From a virus (lineage: Duplodnaviria; Heunggongvirae; Uroviricota; Caudoviricetes): DNA of 42,877 nucleotides. Made by a program: the position numbers. Positions 21,001 through 27,000 of this stretch are shown here, one piece after another. Each line of letters begins with the position of its first letter. Position 1 is the stretch's first letter. The DNA is taken from the IMG/VR virus record IMGVR_UViG_2671181012_000022. One strand, given 5' to 3'.

Positions 21001-24000
21001 TCTGCGGTGTTTTTCTACAAAAATAAGTAAATTATGTCAACTATCACGGTGAGAAACCATGACATTTCTGAACCAGTTAATGCTGTACTTCTGTACGGCG
21101 GTCTGTGTGCTGTATCTTCTTTCGGGTGGGTACAGGGCAGTGCGCGATTTCTGGCGCAGGCAGATTGATAAAAGGGCCGCTGAGAAAATCAGCGCCAGTC
21201 AGTCAGCCGGAAGCAAACCCGAAGAGCCCATTACTCCTTAATAACCCCTTTCAGCGAGAAAATCCTATGTCAGAAGTAAAACCCCTGGTCACTGCTGAAG
21301 CAGTGAAGGAAGTCCTGCGCTCTGAAGAAGTCCTGAGCGCACTGAAACAGAAACTCCGCCAGAACCTTGAGTCGCGTCTTGATGCAGAAGTGGATGCCAT
21401 TCTGGATGAACTGCTGGGCGCACCGGCTGTTCCGGAGCCGGAAGGCATTGCGGGTGACGGGAGTGCTTCAGATGGCGGTGAACCCACACCCGACAGCGAC
21501 ATGATGATGTAAGCATGCGCAAGGGACCATCGGTGTGTGCCGGTGGTCTTTATATTGTTGTGAGCTTCCGGATTGCGGGAGACGGGGTATGTACCAGATG
21601 GAAAAAATCACAACAGGTGTGTCATACACCACGTCAGCGGTGGGAACGGGCTACTGGTTCCTGCAGTTGCTGGACAGGGTTTCCCCGTCTCAGTGGGCGG
21701 CAATAGGCGTGCTGGGGAGTCTGCTGTTTGGTCTGCTGACGTACCTGACGAACCTGTATTTCAAGATTAAAGAAGACCGTCGTAAGGCGGCGCGGGGAGA
21801 GTAGACGATGAACCATGAAGAAATGAATCAGCGCTTCAGTCGTCTGGAAAATGAAATTGCTGAACTGAATAAAAAACTGTCGGTGCTGATGCCTTCTGAA
21901 GATGCAAACAAACGCTGCGATGAGCAGTTTGCGGCGTTTTACGATGATTGCATCAAAATTGCTCGCAGGACCTTTGCGAAGATTTTGCAGGAAAAGTTTT
22001 TACCGGCCGCATTGTCAGAAAAGTACTCCATTACGGTTAAAAGTGCCGGAGAGGAAGGCAATAAGCGTTATTTTATTGCGTCTGCACCGGATAAAGACCA
22101 GGAATGGGAGTGTAACCGGCCATCCTTTGTTGTATCCGGTGATGACGGGAAAATCACCATATCAGAAAATGGAAAAGTAACACCGCCATCGCACCAGCAC
22201 AGTGAGACGCTCATTGAATTTGCCATTGATTACCTGAAGAACAATAAAAAACAGGGGCTGATGAAGCGCATTGGTCGCTGCATGGGATATCTGCAGCTGG
22301 CGGCAGAGATTGAAGCACTTGCCAGTGGTGCAGACAGGGATGCTGCGGTGCGGGAGGGTCTTCTTTGTGATTTCAATACGCCACCCTTTAAGAAAGAGCC
22401 TGATGGCTGGATCCAGCCGGGGCTGACTTATCTCAAATGGCGCATATAGTAAAAGAGAAAACAATTGAGGTGAAAAATGAAAAAATACGATATGACAGTT
22501 AAATCATTCCACATGGGGGATAAAAATGTTGTCGTTGTCCTTGGTATATATAATTATCAGGTTCCATCAATGCTGTTGTTCAATATTGAAATAGATATTG
22601 AACGACGGGAAGATGCTACCATTCCGTTTTATGAGGCGCTGGCTTTAAAAAAAGCAGCCTCGCTAATTCATGAAATTTCTGATGATTTAGCAGTGGCTGC
22701 TTAGATTTTTATTTCAAAAATGGCTCAGGACTGGTATTGCCAAACATGGGTCTTACCGGTGGTTGCATGAGGGTATTGATGGCGACTTTAATCTCTGGTT
22801 TACCTGAGGTTGTGATTTTGCTCAGTTCGCTATGTAACCTGGTTTTAAGCTCATCACTGAATTTCTTGTCTCCACTTTGCTGATCCAGAATGTCAACGAT
22901 GTTGTAGAACAGGAAATTGGCTGCGGTATTTATAGCTATGTTTTCGCGCTGAAGCCCCTGAATTAGTTGAAAAAGTTCATGGTTTGATATTTCCATTAAG
23001 TTCTCCTTATTGAGGTTATCAGCCATCCCTCTTTTGTTACATGTGCCAGTGCCCACCACTGGCAGGCTGAAGACTTAACATATCCAGGGATTCGGAACCG
23101 ATAAATCCTGATAAATATCCATGAACACCAAAATCAAATACGGCCTGTCGGCTGCCGTTCTGGCGCTGATTGCCGCAGGTGCGCCTGCGCCTGAAATCCT
23201 CGACCAGTTTCTTGACGAAAAAGAAGGTAACCACACCACGGCATACCGTGATGGTGCGGGTATCTGGACCATCTGCCGAGGTGCCACCCGGGTGGATGGT
23301 AAGCCTGTGATTCCTGGCATGACGCTGTCGAAGGGGAAATGCGACCAGGTTAACGCCATTGAGCGTGATAAAGCGCTGGCATGGGTGGAGAAAAACATCA
23401 GAGTGCCACTGACCGAACCCCAGAAAGCGGGGATCGCGTCATTCTGTCCTTACAACATTGGCCCCGGTAAGTGTTTCCCGTCGACGTTTTATAAACGAAT
23501 TAATGCAGGCGATCGCAGGGGAGCGTGTGAAGCGATTCGCTGGTGGATTAAGGACGGTGGCAGAGACTGCCGTATCCGCTCAAATAATTGTTATGGTCAG
23601 GTATCCCGTCGTGACCAGGAGAGCGCGCTGGCGTGCTGGGGTATCGACAGATAAGCAGAATATTTTGCTGAAAAATGACGTTGACTAACGCGGACGGATA
23701 ACACGAAATCCTGCGAACTGGCAAAACCTAAGTGAATAAAAGTAAAAACCCCGTTTGTTGGCAGCAAGCGGGGTTTTGTGTTTCTGACCTTGGATAAGGC
23801 AAGGGAGAACATGGAAAAGTATAAACGAATTCTGTTGAGGTTGACTATGAAAAACGGCCTTGAACTGAAAGCGCCAGAGTAACTGATGACATCAGCAGAG
23901 CGCTGGCTTTTGCTATTAAGTGGGTGGCGGTTGGTATCGCTGTGTCTCCGATACTGTATGGGCTGGCAAAACTGGTCATTGCGTTGAAATCGTGAAGGGA

Positions 24001-27000
24001 GGATTAAGCATGTCAGACAAACTCATAATGCTGGCGAAGATCCTCTGTGTAATCGTCGGCATTTCATTTTCACTAATGCTGGTTGCTATTTGCTTTTCCA
24101 CTGCCTGGCGCGTCTTAACTCTGTCAGGGCTGGTGGGGTGACAGAAACATGAAATGTGTACTGTATTCCGGTGACTGTCTTGATGTTATGCCTTCATTAC
24201 TACCGGGAAGTGTTGACCTGGTTTTATGTGACCCGCCGTATGGAACCATTAAAGGGCTTACACTCCGTACATGGGATAAGAGTACGACAGCATGGGACGA
24301 TGCCTTAAATCCTGAAGATATTTTCACACAGTGCGAACGACTGCTGAGGGTGGGCGGTGTGCTGGTCATGTTCAGCCAGGAGCCGCATACAAGCACGATG
24401 ATTACTCTGGCGGATAAAAACCTGCCGTTTTTATATCGTATGGTGTGGAAGAAGGAGCATTTCCCCAACCCGCTTTCAGTAAAAAAAGCACCTGTATCTT
24501 TATTCGAGGATATCGTTGTTTTCCGGAAAAAATATGACAGTGAGAAAAACCACCCGCTGAGGGAGTACGCCCGAAATATCCTTTCTTTCATTGGCCACAG
24601 GACAGACAAGGAAGTTAACAAAACACTGGGGCACCGTCGGGCAGAGCATTTTTTTTGCGTGAACACACTCCAGTTTTCCCTCTGCTCACAGGATACGTAT
24701 AACGAGTTAATTAAACGCTTTGGTATCGACCGTATGCCGGGTTTCATGACATATGAAGAAATGCGCAAAGTGAATTCCGGTTACGGCACTGTGGTTTTTA
24801 ATCTCCCTCAGGGGAAAAAATACCGCGCAAATATTCTGGAGTACGCGCGGGAGCGGGAGCGATGGCATCCGACCCAGAAGCCAGTTGCATTACTGGAAGA
24901 GCTGATTCAGACGTACAGCAACCCTGGCGACAGGGTACTGGATTTTACTATGGGGAGTGGTTCAACAGGTGTTGCATGTATCCGGACGGGGAGACGGTTT
25001 ACCGGAATAGAAAAGGATGACCGGTATTTCGCTGTTGCAAAAAAACGTCTGGAAAAAGAAAACAGTGAAATGGTGGTGATATGAACCGTGTTCTGTGTGT
25101 GGTGATTATTGTCCTGCTGGTGGCCTGTGGTGCGCTTAGTCTGGGGCTGAATCATTACCGCGATAACGCCATCACCTACAAAGCGCAGCGCGATAAAAAA
25201 GCCAGAGAGCTGGAGCTGGCAAACGCAACCATTACTGATATGCAGGTGCGCCAGCGCGATGTTGCTGCGCTCGATGCAAAATACTCGAGGGAATTAGCCG
25301 ATGCGAGAGCTGAAAATGAAACTCTGCGTGCTGATGTTGCCGCTGGTCGTAAGCGCCTGCGGGTTAAAGCCACCTGCTCCGGTACCGTGCGTGAAGCCAC
25401 CGGCACCTCCGGCGTGGATAATGCAACCGGCCCCCGACTGGCAGACACCGCTGAACGGGATTATTTCATCCTCAGAGAACGGTTGATGACAATGCAGAAG
25501 CAGCTGGAAGGGGCGCAGGAATATATCCGCACTCAGTGTATTAACTAGTATTTTTGTTATCCGGAGAATGCATGAAGAAATTACTGGTAACCGTAAAGTC
25601 TTTTCAGGGAACAATTCCGTTCCGTATTTTGCAGTGTGGTCGTGTTCTTGTTGAAGGTTCGTTCAGTGGTAAATGTACGCAATTACACTCCCGGACCTTT
25701 CAGGTGAATGCCACGAATGAAGAGCTAACCGTTGAGTGTACGATGAATGCCGCTAAATGCCGCATGGTATCCGCTGCATTACAGCCAGTGTGTTGAGCGA
25801 CCTTATTATCCATGCGCGGTATTGTCGCCGTATTCCTGCATTAACAGAGACCGCAGCCCGACCGGGAGACTCCTCTGCGCGAGTGTGCGGGGATAATCAA
25901 AAACGATACACACCGGGGTTTACCGCGTTAACGGAGCGCGGCGTTGTCCCCTCATGGTCGCTGGTCCGGTGCGATGGTGGAAGAAACCGGACGATGTGTT
26001 ACCTCGCAAGCTCTGTTATGTCATGTGTCTGATTTGTGATTTAAGTCGGATAATTGTCGTTGCCATTAAGCAGAGGATTGATGACCGACAGGGTGGCATT
26101 GTTAGAATAAGACTTATTCTTATCTGTGCCGGGAATGAAAATGAAAAGAAATCTTCCGTTAATTATTTTGTTGTCTTCTCTGGTTATGGGCTGTACGCAA
26201 CATAAAACAGATATGCCCCGACAGTTGGTTAAGGCATTACCACAATATCCGGCCTATGCAGCGGCAAATTATATAAAGGGACGGGTTGATGTGAAGTTTG
26301 ATATTGGTGCTGATGGTACTGTCACCCGAATTGAGTTTATCCGTTCAGAGCCGCACCATCTGTTTGATGAGCAGGTTGTAAAAGCGATGGCAAAATGGCG
26401 ATTTGAGAAGGACAGGCCGCGTAAAGGCGTGAAGAAAACGTTTATCTTTAGTCCTTCTGCACCCTGATTATTTCATCAGAAATTAATTATCACTCTGTTG
26501 TTATTCTGTACATCCCGGCAGGGTAAGTCTTGTTCCGTCGGATATGAAGATGAAATATTGTTGGAGGACAGTGGGTACCTGCTCCTGTAACCGAACGTTC
26601 ATTTCTCGTTATTTGTCATGCTGGCCGGGCGCAGATGCGTTGCATCTGTTGCCAGCCTTCTCCTGCAGGCTTCAATAACCCACGCTGAAAAGTTACCGGA
26701 CCCTTTATGCTCAAGGGCGATGTTGATCTGTTCAATCATGTGATTGGGGAAACGGATATTGCGGGTTGTGGTTCTGCGGGTCCGGTTTTTCGATGACATA
26801 TTTATTTCCTTTACTGATTGCCATATGACGGGGATTTTACATGGCTCAGCTTCGTACACTCCAGAGCAGAATCAAAACACTGAATACCCGACGGGTGAAT
26901 ATTCTGAAGGGTGAACAGCGTCGTGTCAGTGGCAGTGCACGTGTTTCCCTCAAGCGTCATATCTGGCTCAGGGACGCCGGGCAGTGCTGTCTCTGTGGTC

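Follow-up and report, generated by a model that had tools for sequence, protein, structure and literature searches.

What brings a DNA methyltransferase (MTase) gene to the junction between the endolysin gene R and the i-spanin gene Rz of a lambdoid prophage, and what does its presence mean for the lysis genes on either side? The question arises from the IMG/VR virus record IMGVR_UViG_2671181012_000022 (Caudoviricetes), analysed as one stretch of 42,877 nucleotides (nt) that is referred to below as the window. The original prediction for this locus held that two small peptides and the MTase had entered the lysis cassette as a second insertion, that the spanin genes depend on read-through of this insert, and that one of the peptides could be membrane-active. 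Our analysis indicates that the MTase is the only gene added to a standing slot between R and Rz. Overall, we read it, with a probability of roughly 0.6, as promoter-less cargo that would be expressed late under the antiterminator Q, be translationally chained to Rz and methylate the DNA of the phage progeny. The slot and its borders contain the following features (ORF, open reading frame; aa, amino acids; SD, Shine-Dalgarno sequence; TMD, transmembrane domain; UTR, untranslated region).

23121..23654, plus strand: endolysin R, a phage-21-type lysozyme (PF00959, 86.5 bits; phrog_7, endolysin) and upstream border of the slot
23655..23744, plus strand: R 3′UTR, nearly invariant in 36 distinct intergenic variants, B60-type and antirepressor-type loci (see below) alike
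23745..23788, both strands by sequence: intrinsic terminator with a 15-bp stem (23745..23777) followed by the T-run TTTTGTGTTTCT
23811..23882, plus strand: 23-aa ORF, its ATG following AAGGGAG (anti-SD duplex −8.4 kcal/mol)
23811..23995, plus strand: B60, a frameshifted gene for a 60-aa tail-anchored membrane protein, of which the 23-aa ORF is the first part
24010..24141, plus strand: A43, gene for a 43-aa protein with a single TMD (phrog_4906, 86 bits)
24149..25084, plus strand: predicted orphan β-class DNA MTase of 311 aa (PF01555, phrog_67), the sole additional gene
25081..25548, plus strand: i-spanin Rz (PF03245, 167.8 bits), whose ATG overlaps the MTase TGA as ATGA
25301..25486, plus strand: o-spanin Rz1, a 61-aa ORF embedded in Rz in another frame, with the lipobox LVVSAC read from the sequence

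The coordinates, the SD motifs, the terminator and the MTase-Rz overlap had thus all been called correctly, and the MTase proved real and intact, matching the Pfam family N6_N4_Mtase (PF01555) with 115.7 bits over residues 22-299 (cutoff 26.7). Its motif order, with the catalytic DPPY first (residues 28-31), a central target-recognition region and the AdoMet-binding FTMGSGSTG last (residues 266-274), is that of the β class, and both the DPPY and the FxGxG motif are included in the 70 invariant columns of an alignment of 32 homologs. An AF2 (AlphaFold2) model (pLDDT 79.7, pTM 0.78) gave M.RsrI, M.BceJIV and CcrM as the best Foldseek folds (E about 1e-15). Together with M1.HpyAVI and M.MboIIA, these N6-adenine MTases share the core fold and motifs with our protein (E 1e-15 to 1e-13, TM about 0.5-0.55), whereas sequence identity to the solved β-class enzymes is 18-22% and the helical middle of the MTase (about residues 137-211) is unmatched. 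The DPPY motif suggests, without proving it, that the enzyme methylates N6-adenine. It is not an equivalog of CcrM (NCBIfam CcrM, 79 against a cutoff of 830) or of the YhdJ type (PRK11524, 77.5 against 292). No restriction endonuclease gene adjoins it, its neighbours being A43 and Rz, and PADLOC returned MTase models only; the gene is that of an orphan (solitary) methyltransferase. The start at 24149 is backed by the conserved N-terminus of the homologs (..LY.GDCL..MP). In the PGAP annotation of NZ_CP027340 (our locus L004) the gene begins 39 nt too far downstream (4534..5430, equal to 24188..25084 of the window) and loses conserved N-terminal residues, while other genomes annotate the full 936-nt gene.

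The distribution of the slot's components separates the MTase from the small ORFs. Among 5,426 complete E. coli genomes, the block with the small ORFs matches 2,089, and a full-length relative of the MTase is found in 12, eight of them at identities of at least 99%. About 2,000 genomes that lack the MTase have the whole block of R 3′UTR, terminator, B60 and A43 at 90-97% identity, and the window diverges from these MTase-less loci only past the A43 stop. Since the B60/A43 block is widespread without the MTase, the small ORFs did not enter with it, and they are resident genes of the slot rather than companions of the MTase. The usual start position of Rz, 7 nt after the A43 stop, is taken by the MTase ATG both in the window and in its close relatives. 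The idea that small peptides and MTase arrived jointly as one second insertion draws on their being contiguous and all located between R and Rz in the window; besides the widespread MTase-less block and the point of divergence, it has to contend with the MTase also standing behind an antirepressor gene and A43 in FHI_NMBU_10, and behind quite different upstream genes elsewhere. We consider a joint entry extremely improbable, and this part of the original prediction has to be given up.

FHI_NMBU_10 carries an MTase 98% identical to that of the window, and its Rz is only 64% identical. Relatives of the MTase at 54-76% identity are placed in ten further contexts, and the arrangements listed here (L numbers are our locus labels) show how often the gene is found against the spanin gene or elsewhere in or beside the lysis cassette.

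E. coli DETEC-S792, chromosome: A43, MTase and Rz, with the ATGA overlap
L009: R, terminator, a 60-aa ORF ending in RWW, MTase and Rz, with the ATGA overlap
Salmonella lambdoid prophages L199, L200, L201 and L281: holin, lysozyme, MTase and Rz, with the MTase-Rz ATGA overlap
P2-like Salmonella prophages L202 and L206: holin, endolysin, a small or LysA-like membrane protein, MTase and Rz, with the ATGA overlap
L007 (Salmonella): R, terminator, MTase, terminator, two small ORFs and Rz
L204 and STEC308: Q, MTase and holin
Arsenophonus P2-like element: an MTase at 45% identity directly after Rz

Within the Enterobacterales, this MTase clade therefore recurs inside the lysis cassette, mostly joined to the 5′ side of the i-spanin gene. 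The stop/start overlap of MTase and Rz is kept in distant relatives, and in L199-L201 the MTase ATG is itself overlapped by the R stop; two ATGA overlaps join R, MTase and Rz there. Translational chaining to Rz is evidently no accident of this particular insert. In two of these Salmonella loci (L199, 4921..5385; L201, 4960..5424) the gene caller places the Rz start at an ATA, 9 nt downstream of the real ATG. The Rz/Rz1 pair of the window itself is of the embedded two-component type, combining a PF03245 i-spanin with a lipoprotein ORF in another frame; Rz1 matched no family.

Beyond this clade the association fades. A scan of IMG/VR with the MTase alignment found recognisable lysis genes near four of 80 loci, all of them enterobacterial, and the more distant metagenomic relatives had no recognisable lysis neighbours; the association with Rz thus holds for the enterobacterial clade and not for the family as a whole. 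A profile scan of genome contigs with the same alignment, whose motifs are generic, returned only distant relatives from other phyla among the matches listed. Phage ep3 has a relative at 55% identity, located beside a primase gene. The identities of MTase and Rz do not vary together (for instance 98% with 64%, and 70% with 85%), and the pair is therefore no rigid module. MTase genes often start with ATGAAC, as does Rz, and the E. coli MTase alleles end in ATGGTGGTGATATGA, which repeats the TGGTGGTGATATGA junction of a small ORF ending in IRWW with Rz (in phage 783R2 and L007). This suggests that the cassette was assembled by recombination at short shared junctions.

Transcription of the slot is framed by what follows R. 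The first ~95 nt past the R stop hardly vary across the 36 distinct variants, and the terminator that comes next folds with −21.1 kcal/mol (z = −3.76; none of 200 shuffles was as stable). Its stem is swapped between B60-type and antirepressor-type loci, and the hairpin and the TTTGT..TTTCTG tail are constant. As the terminator after R is kept in all relatives, with or without the MTase, it is unrelated to the MTase and is a conserved trait of this phage group. An independent Rz promoter, which the original prediction had named as the finding that would make the coupling irrelevant, did not emerge from a consensus scan of the plus strand. More generally, the scan returned no promoter-like site on the plus strand of 23655..25081, a type of search that real promoters can escape and in which hits were no more frequent than in shuffled sequence (five promoter-like sites found, 7.0 expected). 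The claim that the spanins need read-through accordingly stands in a general sense, given Q upstream and the terminator after R; nothing about it is special to the insert, because the terminator is kept where the MTase is missing. Two weak terminator-like hairpins within the MTase gene (24408 and 24921) were judged to be due to chance.

The whole 136-nt R 3′UTR (23655..23790) has a minimum free energy (MFE) fold that differs from the terminator hairpin. In it, a box AACACGAAAUCCUGC (about 23699..23713) forms a 15-bp helix with the 3′ half of the terminator and the U-tract, an arrangement that resembles an anti-terminator. We discarded the anti-terminator idea, as the pairing is lost in antirepressor-type loci although the box is conserved there.

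In lambdoid phages, all late genes lie on one Q-antiterminated transcript. On this background, we propose that the slot normally holds the R 3′UTR with its terminator, one or more small TMD genes (of the B60 type, or an antirepressor gene instead) and, always, A43 at 7 nt before Rz, and that two further events occurred in the window, namely an AG duplication that breaks B60 and the placement of the MTase ORF at the usual start position of Rz. Transcription past 23785 would require Q-modified polymerase, as judged from textbook late operons and from the scan result. Without a promoter of its own and behind a strong terminator, the MTase would be silent in the lysogen, and its synthesis would await read-through of the late operon by Q-modified RNA polymerase. 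Its substrate would be the replicating phage DNA, which it would methylate ahead of packaging, probably at N6 of adenine, and so shield the progeny from restriction in the next host. A43, MTase and Rz form a tight chain, with a 7-nt gap followed by the ATGA overlap, along which ribosomes that end A43 and then the MTase could re-initiate on Rz; because the stop/start overlap allows such re-initiation, the insertion would not be polar on the spanins. The small membrane proteins would likewise be made late, in the position that LysA holds in P2.

A late role of this kind has precedents. For the prophage β-class MTases M.EcoGI and M.EcoGII, lack of expression in the lysogen is reported, and they are presumed to be switched on upon induction so as to protect phage DNA (PMC5778455); for PF01555 MTases located in the late operons of P2-like phages, protection of phage DNA has likewise been suggested (PMC3091744). 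The first of these systems also bears on an alternative explanation, in which the MTase is a moron expressed in the lysogen from a promoter in or near the small-ORF region and serves not to protect progeny DNA but to remodel the host methylome, be it for host defence or for epigenetic regulation. Two relatives indeed have an MTase that looks free-standing, the L007 copy is flanked by terminators, a conserved region 5′ of the MTase is common to L007 and L204, and the promoter scan is weak evidence of absence. In the window, however, the gene has neither of the marks of a classical moron, with no promoter-like site on the plus strand (by consensus scan only) and no terminator after the MTase. 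With A43 only 7 nt upstream and its own end inside the Rz start, it has no room for signals of its own; a strong conserved terminator precedes the block, and the related prophage β-class MTases are reported to be not only silent in lysogens but harmful if constitutive (PMC5778455). We therefore regard expression in the lysogen as unlikely.

Several observations nonetheless weigh against late progeny protection by a coupled MTase. The promoter scan was consensus-based, with no more hits than in shuffled sequence. Protection may also be redundant, given two more candidates in the same late operon, one a PF01555 MTase and the other an MTase-like ORF. All examples of the gene are prophages, with no homolog above 55% identity among 50,697 phage records. 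The Salmonella R-MTase-Rz cassettes have no small ORFs, from which it follows that the small proteins are not generally needed for spanin or MTase function. DPPY favours N6-adenine and does not prove the target base. Lastly, as the identities of MTase and Rz do not vary together, what keeps them adjacent may be recombination at shared junctions and not selection for coupling.

The original prediction had treated both small ORFs as peptide genes, and their fates differ. The 23-aa product is not hydrophobic, and its ORF is specific to the sequence type of the window. It results from a 2-nt AG duplication in B60 (AGAG at 23876..23879, as against AG in strain 48, whose MTase is 99.5% identical), after which the C-terminal part of B60 runs on in another frame to 23995; PGAP labels this stretch ‘frameshifted’. 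B60 is intact as a 183-nt ORF of 60 aa in PhiR12_1, E. coli DETEC-S792 and strain 48, and in 32 loci in total. Its intact product, MEKYKRILLRLTMKNGLELKAPVTDDISRALAFAIKWVAVGIAVSPMLYGLAKLVIALKS, has a polar N-terminus and a C-terminal TMD. The frameshift is limited to the window's own sequence type, strain 48 and the loci L010/L013 having the same MTase with an intact B60. B60 is found in E. coli, E. marmotae and Salmonella, always annotated as ‘hypothetical protein’, and matches phrog_1115/4493/3246, which have no assigned function. Its ratio of nonsynonymous to synonymous polymorphism (pN/pS) is 0.14 in frame compared to 0.92 and 2.29 in the other frames. The 23-aa ORF is thus best read as a lineage-specific frameshift remnant and not as a peptide gene by itself.

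The claim for the 43-aa ORF held up well. A scan of IMG/VR with an alignment of A43 relatives gave 80 loci, in which A43 is the standard gene immediately upstream of Rz, and with other fetched loci the number rose to 93, of which 92 have an intact A43. In 87 of 91 loci, exactly 7 nt separate the A43 stop from the start codon that follows, which belongs to Rz in 76 loci and to the MTase in 11. In frame, the pN/pS of A43 is 0.33, while the two other frames give 0.95 and 1.62; for its neighbours R and Rz, the same measure gave 0.13 and 0.52. Its length and the N-terminal half (MSDKLI.LAK.LCVIVGISFSLMLVA) are conserved, with a single hydrophobic stretch at residues 11-29 (Kyte-Doolittle mean 2.86). 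These data support the view that A43 encodes a conserved single-TMD peptide under purifying selection. Relatives in the protein databases are all from E. coli and carry no protein name, whereas tblastn located A43 in 276 phage records, chiefly of Stx1- and Stx2-converting (Shiga toxin-converting) phages, in many of which it has no annotation (for example Min27, NC_010237, 29117..29245; YYZ-2008, NC_011356, 25916..26044). Upstream of A43 stands either B60 or the gene of a 189-aa antirepressor; in the antirepressor-type loci, an extended A43 start overlaps the antirepressor stop, and reading from such upstream ATGs gives A43 a length of 44-49 aa.

Further small single-TMD ORFs share the R-Rz slot, and their order can be shuffled. 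In phage 783R2 the slot holds A43, then the TMD half of B60 and then a 28-aa ORF ending in IRWW, while Salmonella L007 has two more small single-TMD ORFs and the P2-like L202 has a 45-aa one ending in VRWW. Although unrelated, these families are alike in having a polar N-terminal segment followed by one TMD. A43 and B60 had no match in Pfam or NCBIfam and none to a holin or antiholin family, and their PHROGs are of unassigned function. From their position, the late operon context and the TMD architecture, the small membrane proteins are probably accessory factors acting at the membrane in lysis. A more specific proposal, which we make only tentatively and hold to be doubtful, is that the A43, B60, ‘IRWW’ and ‘DFSKLIRELR’ types form one class of regulators of lysis timing, or of spanins or the SAR (signal-arrest-release) endolysin, in pinholin-SAR-endolysin cassettes, with expression gated by the R 3′UTR and terminator.

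The translation signals of the slot allow another explanation, in which the small ORFs act only in cis as leaders, their strong SDs loading ribosomes after the terminator and passing them on to Rz or MTase-Rz, and the peptides themselves have no function. The A43 SD AAGGGAGG, located 7 nt upstream of the start, is the strongest in the cassette (−11.3 kcal/mol, with Rz at −6.2 and the MTase at −6.8), 87 of 91 loci keep the 7-nt spacing unchanged, and chains of tightly packed small ORFs end at Rz in 783R2 and L007. Such leaders would not, however, require the conservation of amino-acid sequence and length or the pN/pS values well below those of the out-of-frame controls; coupling alone needs neither the polar N-terminus nor the TMD that unrelated small-ORF families have kept, and the Salmonella R-MTase-Rz cassettes do without any such leader. 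A role purely in cis consequently seems improbable to us.

A weak promoter-like site on the minus strand, TAGTCA-18-TATACT (9/12 matches; 23847..23818), lies inside the 5′ end of the 60-aa gene and faces the bidirectional terminator. Together (23847..23735) they predict an RNA of ~75 nt antisense to the SD and start of that gene. The DNA under this site is identical in the otherwise diverged locus L009, and relatives show no variation there.

This configuration recalls a type I toxin-antitoxin system, and small hydrophobic ORFs encoding membrane toxins, held in check by an antisense RNA that runs from this promoter to the terminator, would fit both the predicted RNA and the small, hydrophobic products. 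The region nevertheless has 5 promoter-like sites where shuffled sequence would lead one to expect 7.0, Rfam gave no match, and the genes lie inside an operon and are translationally chained to Rz instead of forming a separate unit. The 60-aa gene is moreover dispensable here, being frameshifted, and the relatives have no sequence variation at the minus-strand site. We rate this explanation as very unlikely and continue with resident membrane proteins of the lysis cassette as the preferred reading of the small ORFs.

Among known systems, the MTase is close in kind to M.EcoGI and M.EcoGII of E. coli O104:H4 (Murray et al. 2018, PMC5778455), with which it shares the β-class motif order, the lack of a partner nuclease and the location in E. 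coli lambdoid prophages. These enzymes have 349 aa instead of 311 aa, and only the MTase of the window is found in a lysis cassette and chained to Rz. KS5 gp20 and KL3 gp28 of P2-like Burkholderia phages (PMC3091744) belong to the same Pfam family and are likewise extra genes in late structural or lysis operons of temperate phages, but they lie among tail genes and neither adjoin nor overlap a spanin gene, and KS5 has a Com-like translational regulator beside its MTase.

For the lysis genes, lambda is the natural reference, with an Rz of PF03245, an embedded Rz1 and stop/start overlaps linking the genes. The R and Rz genes of lambda overlap as ATGA, whereas in the window they are separated by 1.4 kb containing the terminator, the small membrane-protein genes and the MTase. 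P2 LysA, antiholins and the ‘releasin’ gp25 of Mu are accessory membrane proteins of lysis cassettes, to which A43 and B60 are likened here by description and not by sequence. Similar to the LysA type, they would be membrane proteins made late and encoded between the endolysin and i-spanin genes; they differ in being much smaller (43-60 aa), with one TMD and no match to a holin or antiholin family. In the P2-like prophages, the LysA position is occupied by a 117-aa multi-TMD protein in L206 and by the 45-aa single-TMD protein in L202.

Orphan MTases carried by phages, morons of lambdoid late operons and the Rz/Rz1 pair are all well known, and the genes are present in RefSeq as ‘DNA-methyltransferase’ and ‘hypothetical protein’. 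In a limited literature search, we found no description of an MTase in a lysis cassette or of the small peptides, and in particular none of one MTase clade occurring repeatedly at the R/Rz junction with conserved stop/start overlaps, or of A43 as a near-universal, selected and often unannotated gene of the Stx-phage lysis cassette. The finding is a modestly interesting case of synteny within fairly ordinary phage mosaicism and no new mechanism. If late expression is true, it would give temperate phages another route to arm their progeny against restriction, with an MTase hidden in an operon that fires just before packaging and wired so as to leave lysis gene dosage undisturbed. The recurrence of the clade by the i-spanin gene in lambdoid and P2-like prophages marks the R/Rz junction as a preferred docking site for cargo, a point of use to both annotation and engineering. 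Of greater weight than the MTase are the small membrane-protein genes, as A43 is present in most Stx-converting phages, is selected and often unannotated, and belongs to a cassette that controls lysis. Shiga toxin release depends on phage lysis. Were the small TMD proteins to regulate lysis, the timing of Stx-phage lysis and of toxin release would be affected; hundreds of Stx-converting phages encode A43 at 7 nt ahead of Rz.

The window as a whole is a lambdoid prophage of the Shiga-toxin-phage type, and over the region of the original prediction (23655-25084) it is 100% identical to several STEC (Shiga toxin-producing E. coli) chromosomes, for example NZ_CP027340. The late operon runs in the order Q, PF01555 MTase, three tRNAs, third MTase-like ORF, sialate esterase, DUF826, holin, three-gene insert, R, slot and Rz/Rz1. 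Two of its members complete the feature list.

14322..15017: Q antiterminator gene (PF06323), upstream in the same late operon
21589..21804: holin, phage-21-type class II

Directly after Q comes the second PF01555 MTase (352 aa, 24% identical to that of the lysis cassette), followed by tRNA-Met, tRNA-Arg and tRNA-Arg and then by a 331-aa ORF with weak N6_Mtase/MTS similarity, which occupies the place of the stx genes in Stx phages (15578..16636, 16677..16926 and 16952..17947 for this stretch); up to three MTase-like genes thus lie downstream of Q. A first insert in the gap between holin and endolysin (21808..23059) encodes a 213-aa protein (phrog_1085), a truncated DUF1327/YdfR-like ORF and, on the minus strand, a 116-aa ORF (phrog_10490) with a weak PADLOC match to the candidate defence family PDC-S51 (E 1.6e-5). 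The N-terminal hydrophobic segment of endolysin R appears SAR-like, judging from its sequence and from what is known of R21.

An Rfam search of 20000..28000 in E-value mode gave two chance-level matches only and no known small RNA (sRNA); the prophage sRNAs Pas, AgvB and AsxR were considered and dismissed, since their positions are between esterase and holin or 3′ of stx, and not between R and Rz. A 214-aa ORF on the minus strand (24124..24768), antisense to the MTase, has a TTG start, is absent from the PGAP annotation and was set aside as spurious. Downstream of Rz, at the place of lambda's bor, lie a 74-aa ORF with no family match (25572..25796) and a gene for a 113-aa protein with a TonB C-terminal domain and a signal- or lipoprotein-like N-terminus (26126..26467).

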